From Escherichia coli (GTDB lineage Bacteria > Pseudomonadota > Gammaproteobacteria > Enterobacterales > Enterobacteriaceae): a DNA stretch of 64,000 nucleotides. The notes below the pieces were generated by a model. It searched no databases and had not been told where the DNA came from. It saw only the letters and a list, made by a program, of their open reading frames with translations. Position 1 is the stretch's first letter. Every line of letters starts with the position of its first letter. Shown piece by piece: positions 1 to 48,625 of the stretch. The position numbers were made by a program, and so were the translations under genes. Location: NCBI RefSeq assembly GCF_024298765.1, contig NZ_CP101210.1, one strand, 5' to 3'.

Positions 1-1142
1 ACGGGTTGAACCGGGTAAAGCTTCAGATTAGCCATATTCTCGTGAGACGGCTCAAACGGCATTTGCAAATCTGGCGCAATGCGCATTGACCAGTTAAAGC
101 TGTAGGCATCGCCTGTGTCGCGGCGATTTTCTTTCACCAGCGGCATCGATTTTTTCATCTGACGAGCGACTTCAGCGGCGTCATCAATGATGATGCGGTA
201 ATGGCGGCGCGCGTTTTCACCCAATGTATGCACGACAAACTCGTCCAGTACGCGGAAGTAGTCGGCGCTCTCTTTCGGGCCGGTGAGGATCAATGGTAAA
301 ACCTGATCTTTGTTGGCCGGGTTCATTAAAATTCCCAGCAAATACAGCAACTCTTCTGCCGTACCCACACCGCCAGGGAAGATAATGATACCGTGAGCGA
401 TACGGACAAACGCTTCCAGACGTTTTTCGATATCCGGCATGATGATCAATTCGTTGACCAGCGGGTTAGGCGGTTCAGCGGCGATAATCGACGGCTCTGT
501 CATACCAATAAAACGACTGTCTTTGTAACGCTGCTGTGCGTGTCCGACCGCAGCGCCTTTCATCGGCGCTTCCATCGCTCCCGGACCACAGCCGGTGCAG
601 ATATTCAGCTCACGCAGGCCCAGCTGATTCCCGACGCGACGGGCATACAAATACTCGTTTTCGTTAATTGAGTGCCCGCCCCAGCAGACCACCATATTTG
701 GCGCTTCACCGACATGCAGTGCGCGAGCGTTACGCAAGATGGAAAAGACCAGGTTAGTGATGTGGACGGAGTTGTCGAGATTCAGGTTGGGAAAACGAAC
801 GGTGTTATGGATTTGCCCGTAAACGAAGAGAATGTCACGCAGAACCGCGAACAAGTTGGCCTGCAAAGCGCGAATAATTCGCCCATCGACAAAAGCCTCT
901 TCCGGGGGATTTATCAGTTCCAGCTTTACGCCGCGTTCACGGCGCAGGACGTTAATATCGAAATTTTCAAAACGAGACAGCAATTCTTTGCTGTTATCGG
1001 TCAAACTACCGGAGTTCAGTACGGCAAGTGAACAGTTGCGAAACAGTTGATAGAGGTCGCTGCTGGCGGTGCGTTTAAGCATATCCACTTCCAGCTGCGA
1101 CAACATATCCATGGAGCCAAGCGGGCTAATATGTGTAATCAA
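1..1142 (-). CDS. ppnN: Nucleotide 5'-monophosphate nucleosidase PpnN (LOG family), 5' portion; 3' end lies beyond the window start
   Basis: Minus-strand frame is open from a TTG start at 1142-1140 (AAGGAG SD 6 nt upstream) to position 1. Reverse complement of 1060-1139 translates [26 protein letters not shown] and of 241-300 [19 protein letters not shown], matching E. coli YgdH/PpnN from memory. Not in the ORF track because it runs off the window. Confidence 0.75.
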
Positions 1143-1253
1143 GAAAAACTCCTTATGGGACGAATATCGTCATTCCCTTTGATTACAATAGCCCTGCCTG
1201 ATGACCTTTCACAACCTTCTGCGTGAATCCAGCACGCAAAATTGAGAAAAAAT

Positions 1254-2102
1254 TTATTGCCGAACCAGTCTTGTGGTCGATGGGACAAAATCGCTATTAC
1301 TGCGCCACGGGTTAATGTCCAGACCGCCACGACGGGTATAACGTGCGTAAACGCTCAATTTCTCTGGCTGGCAGAAGCGTAACAGGTCATTAAAGATGCG
1401 TTCCACGCACTGTTCGTGGAACTCGTTGTGATGACGGAAAGAAACCAGGTAACGCAGCAGTTTTTCTCTGTCAATTTGGCGTCCACGATACTGAATTTGG
1501 ATCGATCCCCAATCTGGTTGATGGGTGATCAGGCAATTTGATTTCAGCAGGTGGCTGACGAGCGTCTCTTCTACTACTTTTTCGCCACTGGTGGCATTCT
1601 CCAGATAGTCAGTAGTGAATTCATAGTTATCGATAGTGATATCCTGGTCATCAATGCAAGTGCCATTGAAATGACCTATCGGTTGGCCTTCCAGTTCATC
1701 AAGACGATATAACGCCACGCTAACCTTACCCTGAGCGCAAGTGCTTAAGTCGCGCTCCAGCGTCTGGCGCACCTCATCCCAGTTATTAAAACGCGTCTGG
1801 TTAAAACTGTTGAGATAGAGCTTAAAACTCTTCGACTCAATCAGATTTGCGCTGGTGTAATCAAGTTCAACATGACCGACAGCGACCTGCGGCAAACCTT
1901 TCGCATTCAGCCAGGAAAGTTCATACAGCGTCCAGATATCCGTACCGTGAAAAGGCAGGTTATCCGCTTTCAGACCCAGCGGGTCGCGATTCAGGCTGCG
2001 TGGAACGCCTTGCAGTAGGCTGGCGTCATAGGTATCCCGGTAATCGGTTGATTTTCCAAGAGTCAGGCCCGCAAGTGCCTGATGGTTTGCATAAGAAGAC
2101 AT
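1254..2102 (-). CDS. queF: NADPH-dependent 7-cyano-7-deazaguanine reductase
   Basis: 282-aa ORF, the length of E. coli QueF; synteny next to syd. Confidence 0.9.
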
Positions 2103-2169
2103 GTTTCACCGTCATAAACCAGATAAACTAAACGACAAGTGTATCTGGTTTAAGTGAAGAGAGAAATTA

Positions 2170-2715
2170 GTGGACGATTTGACCGCACAAGCCCTGAAAG
2201 ATTTTACTGCACGCTACTGCGATGCGTGGCATGAAGAGCATAAAAGCTGGCCGTTAAGTGAGGAACTGTACGGCGTTCCTTCACCGTGCATTATTTCAAC
2301 TACCGAAGATGCCGTATACTGGCAACCCCAGCCGTTTACCGGGGAACAAAATGTAAACGCGGTTGAACGCGCTTTTGATATTGTGATACAACCCACGATT
2401 CATACCTTTTATACGACTCAGTTTGCCGGGGATATGCACGCGCAGTTTGGCGATATCAAACTGACATTGCTGCAAACCTGGAGTGAAGACGATTTCCGTC
2501 GGGTGCAGGAAAATCTGATTGGTCATCTGGTGACTCAGAAAAGGCTAAAACTGCCGCCCACGCTATTTATCGCGACGCTGGAAGAAGAGTTAGAGGTCAT
2601 CTCGGTGTGTAATCTCTCCGGTGAAGTGTGCAAAGAGACGCTAGGAACACGTAAACGGACGCATTTAGCCTCAAATCTTGCGGAATTCCTTAATCAACTT
2701 AAGCCTCTTCTGTAA
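2170..2715 (+). CDS. syd: SecY-interacting protein Syd
   Basis: 181-aa ORF, divergent from queF; length and position match E. coli syd. Confidence 0.88.
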
Positions 2716-2734
2716 TCCAAATACCCCATCTGGT

Positions 2735-2752
2735 TGTGAGAGATCTCTTACA
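2735..2752. promoter_or_regulatory. 18-bp inverted repeat TGTGAGAGATCTCTTACA upstream of csrB; candidate UvrY (BarA/UvrY) binding site
   Basis: Near-perfect palindrome about 180 bp upstream of the csrB 5' end; matches the UvrY box described for csrB/csrC promoters. Confidence 0.5.
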
Positions 2753-2934
2753 GACTCTGTAGGAGATCGCCAGGAAATAAGCGAATACTTAAAAAGATAA
2801 GAATCGTTATTCTCATTTAAAAACAACATGTTGCTTGTTAATTCTTAACTTTCATATGAAATTTTCCTTAAGGCATTGTCTGTAAGTGCCTTGTAAGACT
2901 TCGCGAAAAAGACGATTCTATCTTCGTCGACAGG

Positions 2935-3292
2935 GAGTCAGACAACGAAGTGAACATCAGGATGATGACACTTCTGAAGGACACACCAGGATGGTGTTTC
3001 AGGGAAAGGCTTCTGGATGAAGCGAAGAGGATGACGCAGGACGCGTTAAAGGACACCTCCAGGATGGAGAATGAGAACCGGTCAGGATGATTCGGTGGGT
3101 CAGGAAGGCCAGGAACACTTCAGGATGAAGTATCACATCGGGGTGGTGTGAGCAGGAAGCAATAGTTCAGGATGAACGATTGGCCGCAAGGCCAGAGGAA
3201 AAGTTGTCAAGGATGAGCAGGGAGCAACAAAAGTAGCCGGAATGCTGCGAAACGAACCGGGAGCACTGTGAATACAGTGCTCCCTTTTTTTA
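2935..3292 (+). ncRNA. csrB: CsrB small RNA (CsrA-sequestering)
   Basis: About 360 nt with at least nine CAGGAUG/AGGAUG motifs (2957, 2988, 3028, 3060, 3083, 3120, 3168, 3210 and others), ending in a GC-rich hairpin (3259-3284) plus a T7 run (3285-3291). Sits between syd and yqcC as in E. coli. Confidence 0.88.
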
Positions 3293-3336
3293 TTCCTGCT
3301 ATCCTTCGCGGCAGTTTTTCTTATTGAGGTTGCTTT

Positions 3337-3666
3337 ATGACCACTCATGACCGCGTTCGTCTCCAGTTGCAGGCGCTTGAAGCGTTACTGCGTGAACATC
3401 AGCACTGGCGAAACGATAAACCCCAGCCGCATCAATTTAACAGTACCCAACCGTTCTTTATGGACACCATGGAACCACTGGAGTGGTTGCAGTGGGTGCT
3501 GATCCCGCGAATGCACGATTTGTTAGATAACAACCAGCCGTTACCGGGAGCTTTTGCCGTTGCACCCTATTATGAAATGGCGCTGGCGACTGATCATCCG
3601 CAACGCGCGCTTATTCTGGCTGAGCTGGAAAAACTGGATGCTCTTTTTGCGGATGATGCGAGCTAA
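3337..3666 (+). CDS. yqcC: DUF446 family protein YqcC
   Basis: 109-aa ORF; stop overlaps the truC start (ATGA-type coupling at 3666). Confidence 0.85.
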   Translation: MTTHDRVRLQLQALEALLREHQHWRNDKPQPHQFNSTQPFFMDTMEPLEWLQWVLIPRMHDLLDNNQPLPGAFAVAPYYEMALATDHPQRALILAELEKLDALFADDAS

Positions 3667-4448
3667 TGCTGGAAATACTCTATCAGGATGAATGGCTGGT
3701 TGCGGTAAATAAACCCTCCGGCTGGCTGGTTCACCGCAGCTGGCTGGATCGCGACGAGAAAGTAGTGGTCATGCAAACCGTGCGTGACCTGATAGGCCAG
3801 CATGTGTTTACTGCTCATCGTCTGGACCGACCCACTTCTGGTGTGTTGTTGATGGGATTATCCAGCGAGGCCGGACGGCTGCTGGCACAACAGTTTGAAC
3901 AGCACCAAATCCAGAAACGTTACCATGCGATTGTGCGCGGCTGGTTGATGGAAGAAGCGGTGCTGGATTATCCACTGGTGGAAGAACTGGACAAAATCGC
4001 TGATAAATTTGCCCGCGAAGATAAAGGCCCGCAGCCAGCAGTGACGCATTATCGCGGTCTGGCGACCGTAGAAATGCCGGTAGCGACCGGACGTTACCCG
4101 ACCACGCGCTACGGCCTGGTGGAACTGGAGCCGAAAACCGGACGTAAGCACCAGCTCCGTCGCCATCTTGCCCATTTGCGCCACCCGATTATTGGCGACA
4201 GCAAACATGGTGATTTACGCCAGAATCGCAGCGGTGCTGAACATTTTGGCCTTCAGCGGTTAATGCTGCATGCCAGTCAGTTGTCATTGACGCATCCTTT
4301 TACTGGCGAGCCACTGACTATTCACGCGGGCCTGGACGACACCTGGATGCAGGCGTTATCACAATTTGGCTGGCGGGGTCTGCTTCCTGAAAATGAAAGG
4401 GTTGAGTTCAGTGCGCCATCGGGTCAGGATGGAGAGATAAGTTCCTAA
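3666..4448 (+). CDS. truC: tRNA pseudouridine(65) synthase
   Basis: 260-aa ORF with RluA-family motif HRLDRPTSG visible in translation. Confidence 0.9.
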
Positions 4449-4465
4449 TCCAGGGAGAAAACGGT

Positions 4466-4915
4466 ATGGCGGAAATTGGTATTTTTGTCGGCACTATGTA
4501 CGGAAATTCGCTGTTAGTGGCGGAAGAAGCGGAAGCAATTCTGACCGCGCAGGGCCACAAAGCAACGGTATTTGAAGATCCTGAATTAAGCGACTGGCTG
4601 CCCTATCAGGATAAGTATGTTCTGGTGGTTACGTCCACGACCGGGCAGGGCGACCTTCCTGATAGCATTGTGCCGCTCTTTCAGGGAATTAAAGATACCC
4701 TGGGCTTCCAGCCGAATCTGCGTTATGGCGTGATTGCGCTCGGCGACAGTAGTTATGTGAATTTCTGCAATGGTGGCAAACAGTTCGATGCCTTGTTGCA
4801 GGAACAGAGCGCTCAGCGGGTGGGAGAAATGCTGTTGATTGACGCCAGTGAGAACCCGGAACCGGAAACGGAATCAAATCCGTGGGTCGAACATTGGGGC
4901 ACGCTGTTGTCCTGA
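4466..4915 (+). CDS. yqcA: Flavodoxin-like protein YqcA
   Basis: 149-aa ORF; flavodoxin-like [11 protein letters not shown] motif. Confidence 0.85.
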
Positions 4916-4969
4916 TACGTTCAGCGAGCGGTAAATGCCGTTTTAGCAGTGCTGAATCGAATCTTTTCA

Positions 4970-5022
4970 GGCAAATGCCAGTAAAAACTGCTTCATAGTG
5001 CGGATTTTTACTGGCGTTTGCC
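4970..5022. repeat. Long imperfect inverted repeat (18-bp arms, 1 mismatch, about 18-nt loop) downstream of yqcA
   Basis: GGCAAATGCCAGTAAAAA ... TTTTTACTGGCGTTTGCC read directly; no strong U-tract follows. Confidence 0.5.
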
Positions 5023-5349
5023 TGGAGTCAAGCGATCCATTTCATACTCTTCTTTATTTCTTCGTTTTAACCCTTCCTTTCTTGTTCTTGTTTTCATTTC
5101 CGTGAAGTGGATTCCACCGTCCAGGGCTAATGCCAAAATCGGGCCTCATTGAACGCATTAATGTTGTGTTGTTGCACGGTGAGCCGCTATGGCGCGCTTT
5201 TTATACTGCTATTGCCAGATATAAACACGCGCCGCATTCGGCGAACGACCTATAAAAACGGCAAAAAACACCCTACGTCACCTCTGATTTCCTGGCGATG
5301 TCGCAGTCCAGAGTGAGCGTGGCTAACGCGAATTTTCAGGAGTGCAACA

Positions 5350-6702
5350 ATGAGTTCTTTAAGTCAGGCTGCGAGCAGTGTGGAAAAACGCACGAATGCT
5401 CGTTACTGGATAGTGGTGATGTTGTTTATCGTCACATCCTTCAACTACGGCGACCGCGCTACGCTCTCTATCGCCGGTTCGGAAATGGCCAAAGATATCG
5501 GCCTTGATCCTGTGGGAATGGGCTATGTGTTCTCTGCTTTCTCATGGGCTTATGTTATCGGGCAGATCCCTGGTGGTTGGTTGCTGGATCGTTTTGGTTC
5601 AAAACGCGTCTACTTCTGGTCGATCTTTATCTGGTCGATGTTTACCTTGCTGCAAGGCTTCGTCGATATCTTTAGTGGATTCGGCATTATCGTTGCCCTG
5701 TTTACGCTGCGCTTCCTGGTCGGGCTTGCTGAAGCGCCATCTTTCCCTGGCAACAGCCGCATTGTTGCGGCCTGGTTTCCGGCGCAGGAAAGGGGAACGG
5801 CGGTGTCGATTTTTAACTCCGCCCAATACTTCGCAACGGTTATCTTCGCGCCGATTATGGGCTGGTTGACTCATGAAGTGGGCTGGTCACACGTCTTCTT
5901 CTTTATGGGCGGTCTGGGCATTGTCATCAGCTTTATCTGGTTGAAAGTCATCCACGAGCCAAATCAACATCCGGGCGTAAATCAGAAAGAGCTGGAGTAC
6001 ATCGCCGCGGGTGGCGCGCTGATCAATATGGATCAGCAAAACACCAAAGTTAAAGTGCCGTTCAGCGTGAAGTGGGGGCAGATCAAACAGCTGCTCGGGT
6101 CACGGATGATGATCGGCGTTTATATCGGTCAGTACTGTATCAACGCCCTGACTTACTTTTTCATTACCTGGTTCCCGGTTTATCTGGTGCAGGCGCGCGG
6201 GATGTCGATTCTGAAAGCGGGCTTTGTGGCTTCCGTTCCGGCGGTTTGCGGTTTTATCGGCGGTGTGCTGGGTGGGATTATTTCCGACTGGCTGATGCGT
6301 CGCACGGGTTCACTGAACATTGCGCGTAAAACACCGATCGTGATGGGCATGTTGTTGTCGATGGTGATGGTGTTCTGCAACTACGTCAACGTTGAGTGGA
6401 TGATCATCGGCTTTATGGCGCTGGCCTTCTTCGGTAAGGGGATCGGTGCGCTGGGTTGGGCTGTAATGGCTGATACTGCGCCAAAAGAGATCAGCGGTCT
6501 TTCCGGTGGCCTGTTTAACATGTTTGGTAACATTTCTGGCATCGTCACGCCAATCGCAATTGGTTATATCGTTGGCACGACTGGCTCCTTTAATGGGGCG
6601 CTGATTTATGTTGGTGTTCATGCCTTAATCGCGGTACTCAGCTACCTGGTGCTGGTGGGCGATATCAAGCGTATTGAGCTGAAACCTGTCGCGGGGCAAT
6701 AA
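5350..6702 (+). CDS. gudP: MFS transporter for D-glucarate/galactarate
   Basis: 450-aa hydrophobic ORF, first gene of the gudPXD arrangement. Confidence 0.9.
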
Positions 6703-6703
6703 G

Positions 6704-8044
6704 ATGACGACACAATCCAGTCCTGTTATTACTGATATGAAAGTCATTCCGGTCGCCGGACATGACAGCATGTTGCTTAATATTGGTGGTGCACATAACG
6801 CATATTTCACCCGCAATATTGTGGTACTCACCGATAATGCCGGGCATACCGGCATTGGTGAAGCGCCGGGCGGAGAGGTGATTTATCAAACACTGGTCAA
6901 GGCTATTCCGATGGTGCTGGGCCAGGAAGTTGCGCGCCTGAATAAAGTGGTTCAGCAGGTGCATAAAGGTAATCAGGCAGCCGATTTTGATACCTTCGGC
7001 AAAGGTGCCTGGACTTTTGAATTGCGCGTTAATGCCGTGGCGGCGCTGGAAGCCGCCTTGCTTGACCTGTTAGGTCAGGCGCTGAATGTTCCGGTCTGCG
7101 AACTGTTAGGGCCAGGCAAGCAACGTGATGCTATTACCGTTCTCGGTTATCTGTTTTATATCGGTGATCGGACCAAAACCGATCTTCCTTATCTGGAAAA
7201 TACGTCGGGCAACCATGAGTGGTATCAGTTGCGGCATCAGAAAGCGATGAACAGCGAAGCCGTTGTGCGTCTGGCGGAAGCCTCACAGGATCGCTATGGC
7301 TTTAAAGATTTCAAACTTAAGGGTGGCGTGTTACCTGGCGAGCAAGAAATCGACACTGTTCGTGCATTGAAGAAACGCTTCCCTGATGCGCGGATTACCG
7401 TTGATCCCAATGGTGCCTGGCTGCTTGATGAAGCCATTTCTCTGTGCAAAGGGCTGAATGATGTCCTTACCTATGCGGAAGACCCGTGCGGCGCTGAGCA
7501 GGGTTTCTCCGGTCGTGAAGTGATGGCGGAGTTTCGACGGGCGACCGGCTTGCCCGTCGCGACCAACATGATCGCCACCAACTGGCGCGAAATGGGTCAT
7601 GCGGTGATGCTCAATGCGGTAGATATTCCACTTGCCGATCCGCACTTCTGGACGCTTTCCGGTGCAGTCCGCGTGGCGCAACTTTGCGACGACTGGGGGC
7701 TGACCTGGGGCTGCCATTCTAATAACCACTTTGATATCTCTCTGGCGATGTTTACCCATGTGGGCGCGGCGGCACCGGGTAATCCTACCGCTATCGATAC
7801 CCACTGGATTTGGCAGGAGGGCGATTGTCGCCTGACCAAAAATCCGCTGGAGATTAAAAACGGAAAAATTGCCGTTCCTGATGCGCCCGGTCTGGGCGTG
7901 GAACTGGACTGGGAGCAGGTACAAAAGGCGCATGAGGCCTATAAACGTCTGCCTGGCGGTGCGCGTAACGACGCGGGCCCGATGCAGTACCTGATCCCCG
8001 GCTGGACCTTTGACCGTAAACGTCCCGTTTTCGGCCGTCATTGA
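6704..8044 (+). CDS. gudX: Glucarate dehydratase-related protein (enolase superfamily)
   Basis: 446-aa ORF, paralogous to the next gene (shared blocks [37 protein letters not shown]). Confidence 0.9.
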
Positions 8045-8064
8045 TTTTGAAAAAGGACATAAAT

Positions 8065-9405
8065 ATGAGTTCTCAATTTACGACGCCTGTTGTTACTGAA
8101 ATGCAGGTCATCCCGGTGGCGGGCCATGACAGTATGCTGATGAATCTGAGTGGTGCACACGCACCGTTCTTCACGCGTAATATTGTGATTATCAAAGATA
8201 ATTCTGGTCACACTGGGGTAGGGGAAATTCCCGGCGGCGAGAAAATCCGTAAAACGCTGGAAGATGCGATTCCGCTGGTGGTGGGTAAAACGCTGGGTGA
8301 ATACAAAAACGTTCTGACGCTGGTGCGTAATACATTTGCCGATCGTGATGCCGGCGGGCGCGGTTTGCAGACATTTGATTTGCGGACCACTATTCATGTA
8401 GTTACCGGGATAGAAGCGGCAATGCTGGATCTGCTGGGGCAGCATCTGGGGGTTAACGTGGCATCGCTGCTGGGCGATGGTCAACAGCGTAGCGAAGTCG
8501 AAATGCTCGGTTATCTGTTCTTCGTCGGTAATCGCAAAGCCACACCGCTGCCGTATCAAAGCCAGCCGGATGATAAATGTGACTGGTATCGCCTGCGTCA
8601 CGAAGAAGCGATGACGCCGGATGCGGTGGTGCGCCTGGCGGAAGCGGCATATGAAAAATATGGCTTCAACGATTTCAAACTGAAGGGTGGTGTACTGGCC
8701 GGGGAAGAAGAAGCAGAATCTATTGTGGCACTGGCGCAACGCTTCCCACAGGCGCGTATTACCCTCGATCCTAACGGTGCCTGGTCGCTGAACGAAGCGA
8801 TTAAAATTGGTAAATACCTGAAAGGTTCGCTGGCTTATGCAGAAGATCCGTGTGGTGCGGAGCAAGGTTTCTCCGGGCGTGAAGTGATGGCAGAGTTCCG
8901 TCGCGCGACTGGCCTGCCGACCGCAACCAATATGATCGCCACCGACTGGCGGCAGATGGGCCATACGCTCTCGTTACAATCCGTTGATATCCCGCTGGCG
9001 GATCCGCATTTCTGGACGATGCAAGGTTCGGTACGTGTGGCGCAAATGTGCCATGAATTTGGCCTGACCTGGGGTTCACACTCTAACAACCACTTCGATA
9101 TTTCCCTGGCGATGTTTACCCATGTAGCCGCTGCTGCACCGGGTAAAATTACTGCTATTGATACGCACTGGATCTGGCAGGAAGGCAATCAGCGTCTGAC
9201 CAAAGAACCGTTAGAGATCAAAGGCGGTCTGGTTCAGGTGCCAGAAAAACCGGGGCTGGGTGTAGAAATCGATATGGATCAAGTGATGAAAGCGCACGAG
9301 CTGTATCAGAAACACGGGCTTGGCGCGCGTGATGATGCGATGGGAATGCAGTACCTGATCCCCGGCTGGACGTTCGATAACAAGCGTCCGTGCATGGTGC
9401 GTTAA
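8065..9405 (+). CDS. gudD: D-glucarate dehydratase
   Basis: Track ORF 8041-9405 trimmed to the ATG at 8065 ([10 protein letters not shown], 446 aa) with SD AAGGA upstream. Confidence 0.9.
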
Positions 9406-9412
9406 GACAGAA

Positions 9413-9446
9413 AACCAAAACCGGCTCTATCTGGAGCCGGTTTGAG
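9413..9446 (+). terminator. Rho-independent terminator downstream of gudD
   Basis: Hairpin CCGGCTC-TATCTG-GAGCCGG followed by TTTGAG. Confidence 0.6.
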
Positions 9447-9524
9447 ACTGATGCCAAACGCAAAATTGCCTGTTGCGCTACGTATCAGGGCTACATCATT
9501 TTTTAATTCATTGAATTTAATTGG

Positions 9525-9565
9525 TTTTGCAGGCCGGATAAGGCGTTAACGCCGCATCCGGCATA
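9525..9565. repeat. REP (repetitive extragenic palindromic) element
   Basis: GCCGGATAAGGCGTTAACGCCGCATCCGGC palindrome typical of E. coli REP units. Confidence 0.7.
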
Positions 9566-9635
9566 AACACAGGCACTTGTCACCAATCTGAAACCAGCGT
9601 CATAAAAATCCGGTTGCTACTCGACAAGACGTCCA

Positions 9636-12392
9636 TTACCCGAGAATTTTGCTGGCTTCGCGCGCTACATTATCCATCTCGTCCAACAGTTCCAGCAGTT
9701 CCGGCTCCAAATCTTCTTCTTTAGTACCGCTACGTAACTGTTGTTCGATCAGTTGGCAGAGATTCTTCATACGCGGCACACCGCTATAGCCGCAACTGCC
9801 ATGCAGTTTATGAATCAAATCAACCAGGCCTTCCGGGTTTTCTCCAACCAGCTGTTCCTCAACTTTGTTGCGAACTTCAGGCAGGAAATCGAGTAACATT
9901 TGCAGCATATCGCGCGCTAAATCGGTTTTTCCTGCTGCCTGGCGTAGTGCCAGTTGCCAGTCGAGGGTCGCATTCGGGTTCACCACAATTTCGTTGACTT
10001 CGGGCGTCACGACGCGAGAGGAAATACCGCTGCCAGGCTTGTAGCGCAACAACAAATTATGCAATCGCTCTTCTTCAATCGGTTTCGCCAGATAATCGCT
10101 CATCCCTGCGCCAAGCAGCTTCTCTTTTTGCCCGGCCATTGCATGCGCCGTTACCGCGATAACCGGCGTTTGTTGCTGATGGGGGAGCTGGTGGATGAGT
10201 TCGCAGGCCCGAATGCCGTCCATGTCCGGCATTTGAATATCCATTAAGATCAAATCGAACGGCATCTGTTTCGCCCGTTCAACCGCCTGATGCCCGCTAT
10301 CGCAAAGTTCCACATGTTGCACCATATCTTCCAGCAATGCGCCGATAAGTTTCAGGTTAGCGGGGTTGTCATCAACCGCCATGACTGTCATTGCCAGCTT
10401 ACTTTCATCGGTTACAGGCAAAAGCGTGTTTTGTTTGTGATGACAAAATTCCGTCAGGGCAGGCAACAGGCGCGTAGGTGTTAATGGTTTCAGCAGACAC
10501 GCGCCGATACCATCTTGCTTGAGTTTTTCAGCATTGACTTGTGCATGGCAAGGAAGTGCCAGCATCAGGAAATCGGTCATCGATACCGCTTTCGCTAATC
10601 GCTCATGTTGCATTGTTAGCGGCTCGCGGAAGGTCACCGCGATGCCTAACAACATCATGTCGTAATGCGCGGGAGGCAGCGCGGAGAACGTTGGGCTATA
10701 AACCACCTCCAGCGGCGTTTCACTTAAAATATCCAGCGTGCATTGCGCTGCTGCGGAGTTTGGTTCGACATAGGCCAGGCGCTTGCCGGCGAGGCACTGG
10801 GTGGATGGCCCTTCAATAATAATGTTCGGATTCAGATCGAGATTAATGTGGAACCAGAAAGTTGAACCGCGATTCGGCTGGCTATGAAACGAAATATCGC
10901 CGCCCATTTCATTAACCAGTTTTTGTGTAATCACCAGCCCCAGCCCGGTGCCACCATGACGGCGGGAAATACTGGCATCAGCCTGTCGGAAGGCCTGGAA
11001 TAAGCGCGATTGATCGCGTTCAGGAATACCAATGCCGGTATCCCGAATCTGCACTTCAATCTGCACTTTGGTATTACTCAGCGCACGTTTTTCTACCAGA
11101 ATATCAATGTTGCCATTCTCGGTGAATTTAATTGCATTCCCCACCAGGTTAGTGATGATTTGCTGTAATCGTAGTGGGTCGCCGATAACGTTATCAGGCA
11201 CGTCGCTTTTAATATTGAGCGTCAGTTCCAGTCCTTTATCGTGAGAAGAATGTGCCAGCAGGGTAACGACTTCATCCAGCGTGCTGCGTAGTGGGAATGG
11301 AATACTTTCCAGAATCAGCTTACCTGCTTCCAGTTTCGAGAAGTCGAGAACATCATTAATAATTGCCAGCAAATTATTTGCCGAACGTTCAATCGTATTC
11401 AGGTGATCGCGCTGCGTTGGTGTTAATTCTGTTTTCAGCGTCAGGCGGGTAAAGCCAATAACACCATTCAGTGGTGTACGCAGCTCGTGTGACATATTTG
11501 CCAGAAACTCGGATTTAATACGCGCCGCTTCCTGGGCGCGCTTTTTCGCCAGATCCAACTCAACGTTCTGAATTTCCATCTGCTCCAGCGTTTCACGCAG
11601 ATCGGACGTCGCCTGGTCGATATTGTGCTGCATCTCTTCGTGATAAGCAGCCAGCGACATTGCCATCGAGTTGATACCGTTTTTCAGCATATCCAGCTCG
11701 CCGAGCATAAATCCTTCCACCCGGCTGTCGAGTTGCCCGCGACGGATGCGGTCGACAGTATTCACCATGTTGCGAATCGGACCGGTTACATCGCGCATTA
11801 AGCGCCAGCCAAAAATAAGCGCAATACCGATACAAAACAGCATCATCACGCTGGAAATAAAGATCTCTTTATATTGCTGCAAGCGAACCGATTTAAGATC
11901 CAGCTCCAGCGCAATATATCCCAGCATATTTTGACTATTTTTGGCATCGCTACTGGGCGATTCGTCGGGGGAGTAACTTTCAGAAATAATCGGCGTGCGG
12001 AGGATCATTATATCGCCGTCACGAGTGACAGTGAGCTGGCGAGGAAACGGCACGTTGCTGCCGAGCTGCATTGATGAGGGATCAAGATGAAAATTGGAGG
12101 TGACAAAGAGTCGGTTATTTTCATCATAAACCGAAATCGCGCGAACAATATCGGAATGGCGACGATGCAGTACGCTTATTAACTGACCGATAGATTCGCG
12201 ATTTTGCAGGCTCATGCCATATTCAGTAGAAACTGCAAGCGGCTCAATAATGCTGGCTCCGGCATCTTCCAGTTGACGCTGCAAGTCGTTATAGCGATGC
12301 ACAACGAAAAAGATACTCAGCAATAAACCAATAAGGACGGTCGGTGCCAGGATCAGAATCATCATGCGTGCGCGCAGGCTGTAGTTGGTCAT
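9636..12392 (-). CDS. barA: Hybrid sensor histidine kinase BarA
   Basis: 918-aa ORF with HAMP, histidine kinase ([10 protein letters not shown]-box), receiver and HPt domains. Confidence 0.95.
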
Positions 12393-12448
12393 GGAGTTCC
12401 GTTATGGGACAATTAAGGTCACACTGTTAAATTGAGAAAGTCTCGCCA

Positions 12449-39410: not shown

Positions 39411-39619
39411 TGCGAGCAGCATTCCGGCATTTAAAGGTGAACATCGCAGGGAGAATTAACAGGTATAGAATGGAGTTGGGTGCTTGAGGCTGTCTGGCGT
39501 TAAGCATTCGCGAGGTTCCAGATGGACAAAAGCCCCAGGCGATATTTCTATCAACCTGAGGCCAGCGTTCGAACCTAAGCAATTCGAATGTTAGTCTCTT
39601 CTTTGCAGGGAGGCAAGAC

Positions 39620-39772
39620 ATGCTGACAAAATATGCCCTTGTGGCAATCATCGTACTGTGTTGTACAGTACTGGGATTCACGCTGATGGTAGGCGACTCG
39701 TTGTGTGAGTTGAGTATCAGAGAACGTGGTATGGAGTTTAAGGCAGTTCTCGCTTACGAATCGAAGAAGTAG
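39620..39772 (+). CDS. Hok/Gef-family type I toxin (50 aa), hokX-like
   Basis: ATG at 39620 with SD GGGAGG 7 nt upstream. Translation [50 protein letters not shown]: one TM helix then SLCE...AYES, diagnostic of Hok/Gef. A GC hairpin follows (CGCGGGGG-TAAAA-CCCCGCG, 39778-39797). Below the ORF-track length cutoff. Confidence 0.62.
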
Positions 39773-39829: not shown

Positions 39830-40009
39830 CCTTTTTTAATTTATATTGTTTATGTGAATATTATGCCTATGTTTATTATTTATATATATTATGGATGAAA
39901 ATCATTTAATTATTCACAATGTAAATATTTTATTGAAAGATATATGTCACAGATAATTTTTAATATATGCGTGAATATCCTTTAAGTTTTACTGAAGGAT
40001 AAAAATATT
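39830..40009 (+). promoter_or_regulatory. AT-rich cas3 upstream region (probable H-NS-silenced promoter)
   Basis: Strongly AT-rich (TATATATAT, ATTTAATTATT) immediately upstream of cas3. Confidence 0.4.
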
Positions 40010-42667
40010 GTGACTTTCTTTTATTTCTGGGGAAAAACCCGACGCGGCGAGAAAGACGGGGGCGAAGACTATCACCTTCTTTGCTGGCATTCGCTGGATG
40101 TAGCCGCGATGGGCTATTTAATGGTTAAAAGCAATTGCTTCGGACTGGCTGGCTATTTTCGTCAATTAGGTTTCGCTGACACGGAGCTGGCAGCACAATT
40201 TTTCGCCTGGCTGCTGTGCTGGCACGATATTGGAAAATTTGCCCGCTCTTTTCAGCAACTTTACCTGCACCCACAACTCAAGGTTCCGGAAGGCGCAAGA
40301 AAGAATTACGAAAAGATCTCTCATTCAACGCTGGGCTACTGGTTGTGGAACCATTATTTAAGTGAATGTCAGGAGTTGCTTCCTTCATCTTCACTCTCTC
40401 CGCGCAAACTTAAACGGGTGATGGAGATGTGGATGCCCATGACTACCGGGCATCATGGTCGACCCCCTGAGCGTATGGATGAACTGGATAATTTTCTGCC
40501 TGAAGACAAAGGTGCCGCACGAGATTTTCTCCTTGCAATCAAGGTACTGTTTCCGCTCATAGAGATCCCCACATTCTGGGATGATGACGAGGGCGTTGAA
40601 CTTATAAAACAACTTTCCTGGTATATCTCTGCAACCGTCGTACTTGCAGACTGGACGGGATCGTCAACGCGATATTTTCCACGCGTTGCACAGGCAATGG
40701 ATATTGAAGATTACTGGCAGAAAACTTTAGTTCAGGCTCAAAACGCCTTAACCGTCTTTCCTCCAAAAGCAGAAAGCGCGCCTTTCACCGGAATTAATAC
40801 GCTGTTTCCTTTTATTGAGAATCCGACACCGCTACAGCAAAAGGTGCTGGATCTGGATATCAGCCAGCCGGGACCACAGTTATTTATTCTGGAGGATGTA
40901 ACCGGCGCAGGTAAAACAGAAGCGGCGCTTATCCTGGCGCACAGGTTGATGGCTGCGGGGAAAGCGCAGGGTTTGTTTTTTGGCCTGCCAACAATGGCAA
41001 CGGCCAATGCCATGTACGATCGACTGGTCAAAACCTGGCTTGCTTTCTATTCGCCAGAGTCCCGCCCCAGCCTGGTGCTGGCACACAGTGCCCGAACATT
41101 AATGGACCGCTTTAATGAATCACTCTGGTCCGGTGATTTAGTCGGGTCAGAAGAACCGGATGAACAAACGTTCAGTCAGGGATGTGCGGCCTGGTTTGCC
41201 GACAGTAACAAGAAGGCGCTACTGGCTGAAATTGGCGTCGGCACGCTGGATCAGGCGATGATGGCTGTGATGCCGTTCAAACATAATAATCTGCGGCTTC
41301 TGGGACTGAGTAACAAAATCCTGCTGGCTGATGAGATCCATGCCTGTGACGCTTACATGTCATGCATTCTTGAAGGGCTGATCGAGCGGCAGGCGCGTGG
41401 CGGAAACAGCGTCATTTTGCTTTCTGCCACGTTATCTCAACAGCAGCGCGACAAACTCGTCGCCGCCTTTGCGCGTGGTATAGAGGGCCAGCAAGAAGCT
41501 CCGTTGCTGGAAAAGGATGATTACCCCTGGCTGACGCACGTTACGAAATCCGATGTGCATTCACACCGGGTAGCGACGCGCAAAGACGTTGAGCGCAGCG
41601 TGAGTGTGGGTTGGCTTCATAGCGAACAAGAGTGTATTGCGCGTATCGAATCGGCGGTAAGTCAGGGGAAATGTATCGCCTGGATCCGAAATTCTGTCGA
41701 TGACGCCATCCAGGTTCATCGTCAGTTACTTGCCCGCGGCGTCATTCCTGCTTCCAGCCTTTCACTTTTTCATAGCCGCTTTGCTTTTAGCGATCGCCAG
41801 CGAATTGAAACGGAGACGCTGGCACGCTTTGGTAAAGAAGACTGTTCACAGCGTGCCGGAAAAGTCCTCATTTGTACTCAAGTCCTGGAGCAGAGCGTTG
41901 ACTGCGACCTGGACGAAATGATTTCCGACCTTGCCCCTGTTGATTTACTGATCCAGCGGGCGGGGCGATTACAGCGGCATATCCGCGATATTAATGGTCT
42001 GTTAAAGCGTGACGGAAAAGACGAGCGTTCCCCTCCTGAATTTCTGATTCTGGCTCCCGTCTGGGACGACTCTCCGGGTGACGAATGGTTTGGCAGCGCC
42101 ATGCGTAACAGTGCATATGTCTACCCCGATCATGGGCGAATCTGGCTGACGCAGCGTGTGCTGCGTGAGCAAGGCGCTATTCAGATGCCACACGCAGCCC
42201 GGCTTCTTATTGAATCAGTCTACGGTGAAGACGTGGCAATGCCGGAAGGATTTGCCCGCAGTGAGCAGGAGCAAGTGGGCAAATATTACTGCGATCGCGC
42301 AATGGCTAAAAAGTTTGTCCTGAACTTCAAGCCTGGCTATGCCGCCAATATCAACGATTACCTTCCGGAAAAGCTGTCGACACGTCTGGCTGAGGAATCT
42401 GTTTCCCTGTGGCTGGCTACCTGTATTGACGGTGTGGTGAAGCCTTATGCCACCGGTGCTCACGCATGGGAAATGAGCGTTGTCAGAGTGCGTCGAAGCT
42501 GGTGGAAAAAACATCGGGATGAGTTTTCTTTACTGGAAGGGGATGCGTTCAGGCAGTGGTGCATTGAACAGCGGCAAGATCCGGAGATGGCAAACGTGAT
42601 TTTAGTCACCGATGACGAAAGTTGCGGGTATTCGGCTATGGAAGGATTGACTGGCAAGGTTGGTTGA
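40010..42667 (+). CDS. cas3: Type I-E CRISPR-associated nuclease/helicase Cas3
   Basis: 885-aa ORF; HD nuclease motifs (HSLDVAA, CWHDIGKF), helicase Walker A (TGAGKTEA) and DExH box (LLADEIHACD). Confidence 0.92.
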   Translation: MTFFYFWGKTRRGEKDGGEDYHLLCWHSLDVAAMGYLMVKSNCFGLAGYFRQLGFADTELAAQFFAWLLCWHDIGKFARSFQQLYLHPQLKVPEGARKNYEKISHSTLGYWLWNHYLSECQELLPSSSLSPRKLKRVMEMWMPMTTGHHGRPPERMDELDNFLPEDKGAARDFLLAIKVLFPLIEIPTFWDDDEGVELIKQLSWYISATVVLADWTGSSTRYFPRVAQAMDIEDYWQKTLVQAQNALTVFPPKAESAPFTGINTLFPFIENPTPLQQKVLDLDISQPGPQLFILEDVTGAGKTEAALILAHRLMAAGKAQGLFFGLPTMATANAMYDRLVKTWLAFYSPESRPSLVLAHSARTLMDRFNESLWSGDLVGSEEPDEQTFSQGCAAWFADSNKKALLAEIGVGTLDQAMMAVMPFKHNNLRLLGLSNKILLADEIHACDAYMSCILEGLIERQARGGNSVILLSATLSQQQRDKLVAAFARGIEGQQEAPLLEKDDYPWLTHVTKSDVHSHRVATRKDVERSVSVGWLHSEQECIARIESAVSQGKCIAWIRNSVDDAIQVHRQLLARGVIPASSLSLFHSRFAFSDRQRIETETLARFGKEDCSQRAGKVLICTQVLEQSVDCDLDEMISDLAPVDLLIQRAGRLQRHIRDINGLLKRDGKDERSPPEFLILAPVWDDSPGDEWFGSAMRNSAYVYPDHGRIWLTQRVLREQGAIQMPHAARLLIESVYGEDVAMPEGFARSEQEQVGKYYCDRAMAKKFVLNFKPGYAANINDYLPEKLSTRLAEESVSLWLATCIDGVVKPYATGAHAWEMSVVRVRRSWWKKHRDEFSLLEGDAFRQWCIEQRQDPEMANVILVTDDESCGYSAMEGLTGKVG

Positions 42668-42764
42668 GATGCCTGCGACAGGGCTCTCTGAATAGTTGAT
42701 ACACAGAAAAAGATGGAAGGATGGACAACCGGCCAGGGATGGTCTTTTTTACGAGAGGATGCGT

Positions 42765-44327
42765 ATGAACTCGTTTTCACTTCTGACAACCCCGTGGTTG
42801 CCCGTTCGTTTTAAAGACGGAACAACAGGCAAACTGGCGCCAGTCCATCTGGCGGATGAAAATGTTGTCGATATAGCTGCGCCGCGGGCAGATCTCCAGG
42901 GGGCGGCATGGCAGTTTTTGCTGGGGCTACTACAAACCAGCTTCGCGCCAAAAGATCATCGTCGTTGGGATGATATCTGGGAAGACGGACTGGAAGCTGA
43001 AAAGCTACGGGAGGCATTGCTGCCATTAGAGCACGCTTTCCAGTTTGGGCCAGATTCCCCTTCATTTATGCAGGATTTTGAGGCGCTCACGGGAGATAAA
43101 GTTCCGGTCGCTTCGCTACTGCCTGAGATTCCCGGCGTTCAAACAACAAAGTTTAATAAAGACCACTTTATCAAGCGTGGTGTAACGGAACACCTGTGCC
43201 CACAGTGTTCTGCACTAGCCTTGTTCTCTCTACAGTTAAATGCGCCGTCAGGCGGCAAAGGCTATCGCACCGGCTTACGCGGCGGTGGGCCGATGACTAC
43301 TCTGATTGAATTACAGGAATATCAGGGCAATCAACAAACTCCCTTGTGGCGCAAAATGTGGCTCAACGTGATGCCGCAGGATGAAGCCGACTTACCGCTA
43401 CCCAAAAAATTTGACGGTCTGGTTTTCCCCTGGCTTGGCCCGACGCGCACCAGCGAACTGGCCGGTGCGGTGGTAACCGATGATCAGGTTAATAAACTCC
43501 AGGCGTACTGGGGAATGCCGCGGCGTATTCGTATTGATTTTAATACCACGACAGTCGGCAACTGCGATATTTGCGGCGAGCAGAACGACGCGCTCCTGAG
43601 CCTGATGACGACCAAAAATTACGGTGCGAATTATGCCATGTGGCAGCATCCTTTAACGCCTTACCGTATACCACTTAAAGAGGGTGGCGAGTTTTACTCG
43701 GTCAAACCACAACCGGGCGGTTTAATCTGGCGCGACTGGTTAGGCCTTATCGAAACGGGTAAGTCAGAAAACAATACGGAACTTCCTGCACTGGTGGTGA
43801 AACTCTTTAATGCCAGCAGTCTGAAACAGGCAAAAGTGGGCCTATGGGGATTTGGTTATGATTTTGACAACATGAAAGCGCGCTGTTGGTACGAACACCA
43901 TTTCCCGCTACTGCTCAATAAAAAAGAAGGCCAGATACCGAAGCTGCGGCTGGCTGCGCAAACGGCTTCACGGATTCTGAGTCTGTTACGGAGTGCATTG
44001 AAAGAAGCATGGTTCTCCGATCCAAAAGGTGTAAGGGGTGATTTCAGTTTTGTGGATATCGACTTCTGGAACAAAACTCAGCATCGCTTCCTGAGGTTAG
44101 TGCGCCAAATTGAAGAAGGTCAGGATGCGGATGAATTACTCGGCAAATGGCAAAAGGAAATTTGGTTATTCGCGCGTCAGGATTTTGACGAGCGTGTATT
44201 CACTAATCCTTATGAGCCCGTTGATTTGAAACGCGTCATGACCGCGCGCAAGAAATATTTTACAACATCGGCGGAGAAGCAAAGTGCTAAAGCCGCCAGG
44301 GAGAAAAAGCAGGAGGCTGCTGAATGA
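42765..44327 (+). CDS. casA: Cascade large subunit Cse1 (CasA)
   Basis: Track ORF 42696-44327 (TTG start) trimmed to the ATG at 42765 with SD GAGAGG; about 520 aa, second gene of the cas operon. Confidence 0.85.
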   Translation: MNSFSLLTTPWLPVRFKDGTTGKLAPVHLADENVVDIAAPRADLQGAAWQFLLGLLQTSFAPKDHRRWDDIWEDGLEAEKLREALLPLEHAFQFGPDSPSFMQDFEALTGDKVPVASLLPEIPGVQTTKFNKDHFIKRGVTEHLCPQCSALALFSLQLNAPSGGKGYRTGLRGGGPMTTLIELQEYQGNQQTPLWRKMWLNVMPQDEADLPLPKKFDGLVFPWLGPTRTSELAGAVVTDDQVNKLQAYWGMPRRIRIDFNTTTVGNCDICGEQNDALLSLMTTKNYGANYAMWQHPLTPYRIPLKEGGEFYSVKPQPGGLIWRDWLGLIETGKSENNTELPALVVKLFNASSLKQAKVGLWGFGYDFDNMKARCWYEHHFPLLLNKKEGQIPKLRLAAQTASRILSLLRSALKEAWFSDPKGVRGDFSFVDIDFWNKTQHRFLRLVRQIEEGQDADELLGKWQKEIWLFARQDFDERVFTNPYEPVDLKRVMTARKKYFTTSAEKQSAKAAREKKQEAAE

Positions 44328-44860
44328 GTATTGTAAAAGAGGAGCACAAAGCCACGCTGCGTAAATGGCACGAAGAGTTGCAGGAAAAACGCGGCAATCG
44401 TGCCAGTCTGCGGCGTAGCACAACGGTTAATGATGTTTGTCTGTCAGAAGGGTTTCGTTCTCTGCTGATGCAGACCCACACGTTGTGGAAAATTGAATCA
44501 CAGGAGTGGCGTTTTACCGCACTGGCGCTGGTTGCCGCCGTTGCCGCCAATGTAAAAGCCATTGATGAACGGCAGCCTTTTGCCGCGCAGTTGGCGGCGG
44601 TAATGTCTGAGGGGCGTTTTACTCGCCTGTCGGCAGTCAAAACGCCGGATGAATTACTGCGCCAGTTACGTCGCGCGGTCAAATTATTAAATGGTTCCGT
44701 CAATCTTATCTCTTTGGCAGACGATATTTTCCGCTGGTGCCAGGAGAGCGACGATCTGCTCAATCATCACCGCCGCCAGCAGCGGCCAACAGAATTTATC
44801 CGTATCCGCTGGGCGCTGGAATATTACCAGGCTGGCGACGCCGATAACGAACAAAATTAA
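44324..44860 (+). CDS. casB: Cascade small subunit Cse2 (CasB)
   Basis: 178-aa ORF overlapping the casA stop. Confidence 0.85.
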   Translation: MSIVKEEHKATLRKWHEELQEKRGNRASLRRSTTVNDVCLSEGFRSLLMQTHTLWKIESQEWRFTALALVAAVAANVKAIDERQPFAAQLAAVMSEGRFTRLSAVKTPDELLRQLRRAVKLLNGSVNLISLADDIFRWCQESDDLLNHHRRQQRPTEFIRIRWALEYYQAGDADNEQN

Positions 44861-44874
44861 TAAAGGACTATCTC

Positions 44875-45930
44875 ATGACGACATTTATTCAGCTTCATTT
44901 GTTAACCGCTTACCCTGCTGCCAACCTTAACCGTGATGACACCGGTGCGCCAAAAACTGTGGTACTGGGTGGAGCAACGCGTCTGCGCGTTTCCTCACAA
45001 AGTCTGAAACGTGCGTGGCGCACTTCTGCACTTTTTGAACAGGCACTGGCGGGCCATATTGGTATTCGCAGTGGGCGTATTGCGCGTGAGGCGGCAACTA
45101 TCCTGATTGAGAAAGGCATCGAAGAGAAAAAAGCCATCGAATGGGCGGCAAAAATTGCGGATTATCTTGGGAAAGCTAAAAACGACAAAAAACCAAAAGA
45201 TCCGCTCACTAACGCCGAAACTGAACAGCTAGTCCATATCAGCCCGGCAGAATTTGACGCCGTAAAAGCGCTGGCCCATCAACTGGCCGAAGAAAAGCGC
45301 GCGCCAAAAGAGGAAGATCTCGCTTTGTTACGTAAAGATCGCATGGCGGTAGATATCGCTATGTTTGGTCGTATGCTGGCGAATAAACCCGAATTTAATG
45401 TTGAAGCCGCCTGCCAGGTCGCGCATGCATTTGGTGTCAGTGAAACGATTGTCGAAGATGATTTTTTCACCGCCGTTGATGATTTGCGCCAGGCTTCTGA
45501 AGATGCCGGTGCCGGGCATCTTGGTGAAACCGGATTCGGTTCTGCGCTGTTCTACACCTATATCTGCATCGATAAAGATCTGCTGGTCGAAAACCTCGGC
45601 GGTGACGAAGCGTTAGCTAATCAGACCTTGCGCGCCTTTACGGAAGCCGCACTTAAAGTCTCCCCAACCGGCAAACAGAACAGCTTTGCCAGCCGTGCCT
45701 ACGCCTCCTGGGCGCTGGCAGAAAAAGGCACTGAACAACCACGCTCTCTGGCGGCGGCTTTCTATGAACCCATTAATGGCACCCTCCAGTTAGATGTGGC
45801 GGTGCAGCGTATTACAACGCTTCGCGAAAATATGAATACGGTCTATGAACAGAAGACCGAATGTGCAAGCTTTGACGTGATGAACAAACAGGGAAGCATG
45901 AAGGACGTGCTGGACTTTATCTGCGCGTAA
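44875..45930 (+). CDS. casC: Cascade backbone subunit Cas7e (CasC)
   Basis: 351-aa ORF, correct position in the operon. Confidence 0.88.
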   Translation: MTTFIQLHLLTAYPAANLNRDDTGAPKTVVLGGATRLRVSSQSLKRAWRTSALFEQALAGHIGIRSGRIAREAATILIEKGIEEKKAIEWAAKIADYLGKAKNDKKPKDPLTNAETEQLVHISPAEFDAVKALAHQLAEEKRAPKEEDLALLRKDRMAVDIAMFGRMLANKPEFNVEAACQVAHAFGVSETIVEDDFFTAVDDLRQASEDAGAGHLGETGFGSALFYTYICIDKDLLVENLGGDEALANQTLRAFTEAALKVSPTGKQNSFASRAYASWALAEKGTEQPRSLAAAFYEPINGTLQLDVAVQRITTLRENMNTVYEQKTECASFDVMNKQGSMKDVLDFICA

Positions 45931-45940
45931 GGGGCGGCTA

Positions 45941-46687
45941 ATGAGCCAATATTTGATTTTTCAGCTTCATGGGCCAATGGCATCCTGGGGCGTCGATGCC
46001 CCTGGCGAAGTGCGTCATACCCATGAACTGCCTTCGCGCTCAGCATTGCTGGGGCTGCTGGCTGCCGGGGTAGGGATTCGGCGTGATGATACCGAACGAT
46101 TAAACGCGTTTAACCGCCACTATTCACTGGTGGTTTGCGCCAGCCGTAACCCGCGCTGGGCACGGGATTATCACACGGTCCAGATGCCAAAAGAGGTGCG
46201 TAAAGCGCGTTATTTCAGCCGTCGCGAAGAGTTGAGCGCCCCTGATCTTCTGAGCGCGATTATCTCCCGGCGCGACTACTACACCGATGCCTGGTGGATG
46301 GTGGCGGTGGCAACAACCCCCGATGCGCCTTACAGCCTTGAACAGTTGCAGGACGGTTTACGTCATCCGGTTTTTCCGCTTTATCTGGGGCGAAAAAGTC
46401 ATCCGCTGGCGTTACCACTTGCGCCGTTACTGCTCGAAGGCAACGCGTCTGATGTCTTACGTAACGCATACCAACAGTATCAGGATAGTTTCCGCGAACT
46501 GAAAGTCTCACTCCCGAAACTTCAGGATGAATGCTGGTGGGAAGGGGAACACGACGGCCTGGTCGCGAGCAAAATATTACGTCGCCGGGATGTTCCTTTA
46601 AATCGTCAGCAGTGGCTGTTTGGGGAACGCACCATCAATCAGGGGCCGTGGCTCAGCAAGGAGGAACCATGTACCTCTCAAGAATAA
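45941..46687 (+). CDS. casD: Cascade subunit Cas5e (CasD)
   Basis: 248-aa ORF; N-terminal LHGPMASWG resembles the Cas5 glycine-rich start. Confidence 0.85.
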   Translation: MSQYLIFQLHGPMASWGVDAPGEVRHTHELPSRSALLGLLAAGVGIRRDDTERLNAFNRHYSLVVCASRNPRWARDYHTVQMPKEVRKARYFSRREELSAPDLLSAIISRRDYYTDAWWMVAVATTPDAPYSLEQLQDGLRHPVFPLYLGRKSHPLALPLAPLLLEGNASDVLRNAYQQYQDSFRELKVSLPKLQDECWWEGEHDGLVASKILRRRDVPLNRQQWLFGERTINQGPWLSKEEPCTSQE

Positions 46688-47315
46688 CCTTACATACCGG
46701 CCAGCTTTCCCCAGCGCAGTTGCTGCATCTGGTGGATCGCGGTGAATATGTAATGCATCAGTGGCTGTGGGATCTTTTTCCTGGCGGCAAAGAAAGGCAA
46801 TTTCTTTATCGTCGGGAAGAACTCCAGGGGGCGTTTCGCTTTTTTGTCCTGTCGCAGGAACGCCCGGCGGAAAGTGATATTTTCACCATCGAATGCCGAC
46901 CATTTGCGCCAGAGTTGCGTACCGGACAATCCCTTTGTTTCAACCTGCGGGCGAATCCAACAATTTGTAAAGCGGGCAAACGCCACGACTTGCTGATGGA
47001 GGCGAAACGGCAGGTGAGGGGGCAGGTGGAAGGAAGTGATGTCTGGTTGCATCAACAACAGGCTGCGCTGGACTGGCTGGCAGCGCAGGGGGAGAGAAGC
47101 GGTTTTACACTGCTGGATACTTCGGTTGATGCCTACCGACAACAGCAACTGCGGCGGGAAAACTCCCGGCAACTGATCCAGTTCAGTAGCGTGGATTATA
47201 CGGGGATGCTTACGGTCACCGATCCTGGGTTATTTCTGCAACGTCTCAGTCAGGGGTATGGCAAAAGCCGGGCGTTCGGTTGTGGTCTGATGCTGATCAA
47301 ACCCGGAGCAGAGGC

Positions 47316-47319
<4 letters not shown>
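46669..47319 (+). CDS. casE: CRISPR pre-crRNA endoribonuclease Cas6e (CasE)
   Basis: Track ORF trimmed to MYLSRITLHTG (216 aa); C-terminal glycine-rich loop GYGKSRAFGCGLMLI. Confidence 0.85.
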
Positions 47320-48529
<1,210 letters not shown>

Positions 48530-48625
48530 GTTATCCGTTCTTTAAAAATAAGGAAATGTTTTAATTTAGTTGGTAGATTGTTGATGCGGAATAAATTTGT
48601 TTAAAAACAGTTATGTATGCTTAGT
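48530..48625 (+). promoter_or_regulatory. CRISPR leader (AT-rich, between cas2 and first repeat)
   Basis: 96-bp AT-rich spacer between the cas2 stop and repeat 1. Confidence 0.65.

Follow-up and report, generated by a model that had tools for sequence, protein, structure and literature searches.

The window, a stretch of 64,000 nucleotides of Escherichia coli DNA, almost certainly carries csrB, the gene of an untranslated RNA, in the intergenic gap (2716–3336) between two plus-strand genes, syd and yqcC. The features of the locus and of the linked kinase gene are, in window coordinates:

2170–2715 (+): syd, the upstream neighbour, for the SecY-interacting protein Syd; match to NF003439 (286.7 bits, cut-off 153), annotated as syd in strain 104
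2735–2752 (no strand): 18-bp near-perfect inverted repeat TGTGAGAGATCTCTTACA, the UvrY-P site (upstream activating sequence), equal to the published K-12 footprint
2758–2766 (+): extra partial half-site TGTAGGAGA, 5 bp 3' of the repeat, described in Zere 2015
2821–2836 (no strand): putative IHF site from a consensus scan against WATCAANNNNTTR
2881–2886 and 2892–2897 (+): a direct pair of TGTAAG hexamers resembling half-sites and spaced 11 bp apart; the second one overlaps the -35 hexamer
2891–2919 (+): inferred sigma-70 promoter, with -35 TTGTAA (2891–2896), a 17-bp spacer and -10 GATTCT (2914–2919)
2926–3294 (+): csrB, from the RF00018 match, the K-12 b4408 alignment, fold and covariation; 22 GGA motifs
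3244–3258 (+): RNase E "necessary cleavage site", unstructured, between GGA 21 (3239) and the terminator
3259–3291 (+): intrinsic terminator, a perfect 11-bp stem (7 G-C pairs) with a 4-nt loop at 3259–3284, then T7
3337–3666 (+): yqcC, the downstream neighbour, so annotated in strain 104, where the sequence is the same
9636–12392 (-): barA, the sensor kinase that phosphorylates UvrY; 918 aa, NF008318 equivalog, annotated as barA in strain 104, whose sequence is identical here

We are practically certain, with no observation speaking against it, that the stretch 2926–3294 (+) is the E. coli csrB gene, which gives rise to a 369-nt untranslated RNA. When the whole window was scanned at gathering thresholds, CsrB (RF00018) was the stronger of two Rfam matches; it spans 2935–3294 (+) with 381.7 bits (E 4.9e-111; gathering score 71), covers model positions 1–356 of 356 and contains no non-canonical consensus pairs. 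The ends of the gene were set by alignment to K-12 b4408, which places the 5' end at window position 2926 and the 3' end at 3294. In K-12 MG1655, b4408 is the annotated ncRNA csrB, 369 nt in length, and occupies the same syd–yqcC gap. The first-pass annotation had named this region CsrB and had proposed alignment to the Rfam family as a check; the full-length match, the 99% identity to b4408 and its upstream region, and the shared syd–csrB–yqcC position bear out that identification. Its interval, 2735–3292, comprises the regulatory region plus the gene, whereas the RNA proper is 2926–3294. It was also right to call all this known biology: the gene, the UvrY palindrome and the nearby barA have been described before, and since csrB has been published along with the UvrY site, the dependence on IHF and the route of decay, the discovery value is nil. 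In the present analysis, family membership, anatomy, K-12 identity and conservation were computed, and the binding of CsrA and UvrY-P, IHF dependence and cleavage are taken from the literature.

Over positions 1–13350, the window is identical to the chromosome of E. coli strain 104; beyond 13350, two base differences are followed by divergence inside a CRISPR array. The PGAP annotation of strain 104 shows only syd and yqcC at this locus and has no feature between them, so the earlier remark that ORF-based annotation would miss csrB is true for this strain. In E. coli, CsrA regulates carbon metabolism, biofilm formation, motility and virulence on a global scale, and CsrB is its main antagonist; an annotation without csrB therefore omits a central regulator. 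Here, a reading of the sequence alone recovered a non-coding gene that pipeline annotation had skipped. The gene is close to universal in the species: a 701-base query covering the csrB region was found in 5425 of 5426 complete E. coli genomes, in many at 100%, and had no match in the one remaining genome. The matching places number 5517; one of them is on a plasmid-typed record, and some genomes have two.

The anatomy of the RNA is dominated by GGA motifs. There are 22 of them in the 369 nt of csrB, compared with about 5.4 per 369 nt on the same strand of the window, and no 369-nt stretch outside csrB has more than 14. The exact heptamer CAGGATG is found six times, all inside 2958–3174, and 25 times in the whole window versus 7.1 expected, while relaxed versions in csrB number nine (CAGGANG), nine (GGAUG) and eight (AGGAUG). 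The claim of at least nine CAGGAUG-type motifs thus holds for relaxed CAGGANG or GGAUG, but not for exact CAGGAUG. As to a tandem-repeat origin of these units, TRF at a score of at least 80 reports no repeat within 2926–3294.

The minimum-energy fold of csrB has -117.7 kcal/mol (z = -3.49) and 16 hairpins. Folding had been suggested as a check on whether GGA sits in loops, and it does: 13 of the 22 motifs lie strictly inside hairpin loops of this fold, compared with a mean of 1.75 and a maximum of 6 in 200 dinucleotide shuffles, and GGA bases are unpaired with a mean probability of 0.82, versus 0.36 for the remaining bases. In an alignment of ten sequences (E. albertii, Citrobacter, Klebsiella, Enterobacter, Serratia, Edwardsiella, Erwinia, Pantoea, Dickeya and this window), compensatory double changes occur in 18 of 50 consensus pairs, including stems that bear AGGA or CAGGAUG loops. 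The reverse complement of csrB folds with an even lower z (-5.9) than the sense strand, so that folding energy alone cannot assign the strand; the plus strand was assigned from the terminator, the sense of the GGA motifs and the Rfam match. The terminator, described as strong in the first reading, has an 11-bp stem with the arms GGGAGCACTGT and ACAGTGCTCCC, is followed by TTTTTTT and is seen in the plus sense only.

Upstream of the gene, the inverted repeat TGTGAGAGATCTCTTACA is present in a single copy in the window, with eight of nine pairs matching, and its centre at 2743/2744 corresponds to -183/-182 relative to the start at 2926. According to Zere 2015 (PMC4682653), csrB and csrC are by far the strongest UvrY targets, binding requires BarA, and the DNase I footprint of UvrY-P, which was complemented by ChIP-exo mapping, covers only the upstream 18-nt inverted repeat. 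The csrB site is given there as TGTGAGAGATCTCTTACA, centred at -183/-182, with TGTAGGAGA 5 bp downstream. The palindrome that had been taken for a UvrY-type site therefore agrees letter for letter, and in position, with the K-12 UvrY-P site as given in that paper. Since window and K-12 are identical over 2700–2811, whole footprint region included, the published footprint transfers directly; by analogy with the identical K-12 sequence, UvrY-P would bind the window repeat in a BarA-dependent manner. The half-site TGTAGGAGA forms a second inverted repeat of 13 nt with the right arm of the first, and is kept as TGT[AG][AG]GA[GC]AT in 18 Enterobacteriaceae sequences. As an instance of the UvrY/SirA/GacA upstream activating sequence (TGTRAG-N6-CTYACA), the window site is thus the same as that of K-12 csrB, whereas the putative IHF site in the spacer is a different allele.

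Could the RNA belong to the Csr/Rsm clan without being CsrB itself, for instance as CsrC or an RNA of the RsmX/Y/Z type? Hairpins with GGA loops, a terminator and a UvrY/GacA box are common to the whole clan, and the csrC repeat, a weaker version of that of csrB (PMC4682653), starts with the same TGTGAGA. Yet Rfam, which keeps the best of overlapping clan matches, reports CsrB over its full length, and the repeat is the csrB version rather than the weaker csrC one. It is the alignment to K-12 csrB, with its 99% identity in the same syd–yqcC gap, that refutes a CsrC or RsmX/Y/Z-type identity, and we regard the latter as next to impossible. A protein-coding origin of the signal, in which the interval would code for at least one small protein and the periodicity of GGA would arise as a by-product of coding, has an equally negligible chance. 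Mechanical ORFs of 22–71 aa do exist on both strands, but they are short and mutually overlapping in several frames, and the K-12 reference annotation here is an ncRNA. Moreover, across the ten species it is the hairpin stems, with compensatory changes, and the GGA loops that are conserved, while indels of many lengths are tolerated. We rejected the small-protein reading on the grounds of these short overlapping ORFs and the RNA-type conservation; the ORFs had been called spurious at the outset, and only ORFs of up to 71 aa overlap 2735–3292.

With the RNA identified as CsrB, the presence of barA in the same window raises a question of a different kind. The BarA product matches NF008318 with 1623.9 bits (cut-off 890), residues 1–917 aligning to profile positions 1–917 of 920, and its gene lies 6.3 kb past the 3' end of csrB, with yqcC, truC, yqcA and gudPXD between; the first-pass placement of barA about 6 kb away is accurate. 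Its description as the cognate sensor kinase stands, with the nuance that BarA acts on csrB only via UvrY, which is encoded outside the window. From the BarA–UvrY two-component system, the window thus holds a full-length barA but not uvrY, the gene of the response regulator, which none of the annotation tables for window positions 1–62.5 kb lists. A functional reason for the closeness of barA and csrB, be it co-regulation or a selected linkage between input and output of the pathway rather than merely inherited gene order, appears very unlikely to us. It would draw on the recurrence of barA orthologues (at least 68% identity) close to the repeat of csrB at seven or more further loci of Enterobacteriaceae, and on E. 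albertii, where under 2 kb separate barA and csrB. However, the two genes are on opposite strands and separated by the genes named above, UvrY, as the DNA-binding factor of the pathway, has its gene elsewhere, and no part of the mechanism needs proximity in cis. As the whole syd–csrB–yqcC block is syntenic across orders, the linkage may simply be ancestral.

The inverted repeat itself is widespread. An exact scan for the 18-nt sequence, with one genome per species, yielded at least 120 loci (L003–L122), for which 121 copies were analysed. The listed loci include Escherichia, Citrobacter, Enterobacter, Klebsiella, Pantoea, Erwinia, Serratia, Dickeya and Edwardsiella, and also Vibrio, where genomes have as many as three copies, as well as Photobacterium, Enterovibrio, Shewanella and others; the 18 nt are the same letter for letter all the way from Escherichia to Vibrio, Photobacterium and Shewanella. 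A GGA-dense stretch, defined as at least 13 GGA per 300 nt, a density reached by only 9 of 9732 background windows, lies near the repeat in 115 of the 121 copies listed, at a median distance of 160 nt (interquartile range 150–175). Among these 115 listed copies, the orientation is that of E. coli in 85, and the near-palindrome is flipped in 30. Homologues of syd flank the repeat in 69 of the 120 listed loci and homologues of yqcC in 66, some of them in Photobacterium and Shewanella.

When 17 of the listed loci were searched with Rfam, CsrB was called in 13, and the spacing between repeat and RNA was 164–183 nt in the nine Enterobacterales loci. The remaining four (L007, L029, L076 and L079) gave no match at the gathering score. 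Two of these, L007 on a Vibrio chromosome 2 and L029 in Shewanella, have GGA-dense neighbours despite the missing Rfam match, and their RNAs are therefore probably divergent Csr RNAs. No GGA-dense stretch was found within 700 nt on either side in L030 (+ copy at 12089–12106), L031, L074, L076 and L085, and L079 is too short to be judged in this respect. The GGA-less copies of the repeat come from Shewanella, Hahellaceae, Kangiellaceae, a Pseudomonadales MAG and a Vibrio; they may mark other targets or very divergent Rsm RNAs.

The window RNA shares 365 of 369 bases with its K-12 counterpart, and the two are alike in length, start and end, flanking genes, the 22 GGA motifs, the place of the terminator and the RNase E cleavage segment, which is identical. 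The four substitutions (A for C at +52, A for G at +189, C for U at +313 and A for G at +340) remove no GGA motif. Two of them, +313 and +340, fall in the 3' segment that controls decay: the first (window 3238; C in the window, U in K-12) is located in the loop immediately 5' of the CsrA site GGA 21, and the second (window 3265; A in the window, G in K-12) replaces G-U by A-U in the terminator stem, so that the stem is perfect in the window, whereas that of K-12 has one G-U pair. Upstream of csrB, window and K-12 differ by five substitutions, at -114, -103, -99, -92 and -39.

The putative IHF site is polymorphic. In K-12, this stretch (AATCAAAATGTTGATT) contains two overlapping perfect matches to WATCAANNNNTTR, one per strand, whereas the window allele AAACAACATGTTGCTT has one mismatch on each strand, with the core T lost in both. 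IHF tolerates degenerate sites. On the plus strand, the core reads ATCAA or TTCAA in the other three species of Escherichia and in the majority of the remaining aligned Enterobacteriaceae, with ATCAG, ATCAT and TTCAT as variants in a few, and also AACA in Kosakonia; from Escherichia to Klebsiella, the core is otherwise kept. Since the other Escherichia species and most genera keep the ATCAA/TTCAA core, the window allele looks derived, to judge from the alignment. It is nevertheless common: the exact 31-nt window allele is present in 1381 of 5426 complete E. coli genomes, O157:H7 and ATCC 25922 among them, and the K-12 allele of the stretch in 2886. The comparison thereby records a common promoter allele with a possible effect on the level of CsrB. 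Zere 2015 (PMC4682653) places a putative IHF site between two crosslinking regions and reports about 10-fold lower CsrB in ihf mutants; we infer that 2821–2836 is the site marked there.

For the promoter, the hexamers TTGTAA and GATTCT were placed from the K-12 start site (2926) and from cross-species conservation, and 18 species show no variation in either hexamer or in the start region. A strict sigma-70 consensus scan of 2600–3400 returned no promoter, which is to be expected because the csrB promoter is weak and activator-dependent. The motif TGTRAG occurs four times in the 227 nt upstream of csrB, versus 0.12 times expected, and TTGTAAGAC is invariant in 18 Enterobacteriaceae sequences. 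A TGTAAG half-site is common 120–140 nt past the repeat in Enterobacteriaceae; as a universal feature, TGTAAG at the -35 position was rejected, being not general in Vibrio or Shewanella. PMC4682653 describes a promoter-proximal region of UvrY crosslinking in vivo, from -56 to +25, that was not footprinted in vitro and at which the inverted repeat is not preserved. Both TGTAAG hexamers (2881–2897) fall within this region and go unmentioned in the text consulted; UvrY may contact them. E. coli lineages might differ in the IHF dependence of csrB, and hence in CsrB level, and the TGTAAG hexamers at -45 and -34 might in addition serve as direct low-affinity contacts for UvrY via DNA looping; we make this joint proposal tentatively and consider it unlikely. 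If true, contacts of this kind would account for the otherwise unexplained ChIP-exo signal near the promoter in Zere 2015.

Put together with the K-12 literature, these elements suggest the following course of events. BarA would phosphorylate UvrY, and UvrY-P would bind the repeat at 2735–2752, on which csrB transcription should depend. IHF most probably bends the AT-rich spacer DNA and thus brings UvrY to the promoter, a weak sigma-70 promoter from which RNA polymerase would start at 2926. The transcript, expected to end at the intrinsic terminator at 3259–3291, would fold into an array of GGA-loop hairpins, with most GGA motifs placed in short-hairpin loops or single-stranded spacers. Each GGA would bind one face of a CsrA dimer; given the many GGA motifs per molecule, CsrB could hold many CsrA dimers and keep them away from weaker mRNA targets. 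Binding and sequestration of CsrA are known for K-12 CsrB (cited in PMC4682653 and PMC5027483) and may be carried over to the window RNA, which differs in four of 369 bases.

In K-12, RNase E initiates the decay of CsrB by cutting at A327 and A331, in an unstructured segment just 5' of the terminator, where CsrA bound at the neighbouring GGA protects the RNA and CsrD relieves this protection (Vakulskas 2016; PMC5027483). These positions correspond to window 3252 and 3256, both of which are A. Turnover of the window RNA would accordingly begin with RNase E at 3252/3256, blocked by CsrA and unblocked by CsrD.

Several other loci of the window merit brief mention. The genes relA and mazG follow each other after a gap of 95 bp (13798–16919). 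In K-12, the mazEF toxin–antitoxin pair lies between these two genes; given that only 95 bp separate them here, mazEF appears to be absent from the window's lineage. A type I-E CRISPR–Cas system (cas3, casA–E, cas1 and cas2), followed by a CRISPR array, occupies 39967–49511, and a second array is found near queE (22408–22924). In the annotation of strain 104, cas3 is frameshifted and casA has an internal stop; in the window, the casA ORF (42696–44327) is uninterrupted, and one base within casA (43431) differs from strain 104. The spacer content of the arrays differs between the two from about 48.78 kb onward. Finally, a chromosomal hok/sok-type toxin–antitoxin locus (39478–39772) adjoins cysH: Rfam sok (RF01794) matches 39478–39635 (+) with 111.7 bits, and the 50-aa ORF at 39620–39772 is Hok/Gef by the annotation of the near-identical strain 104.
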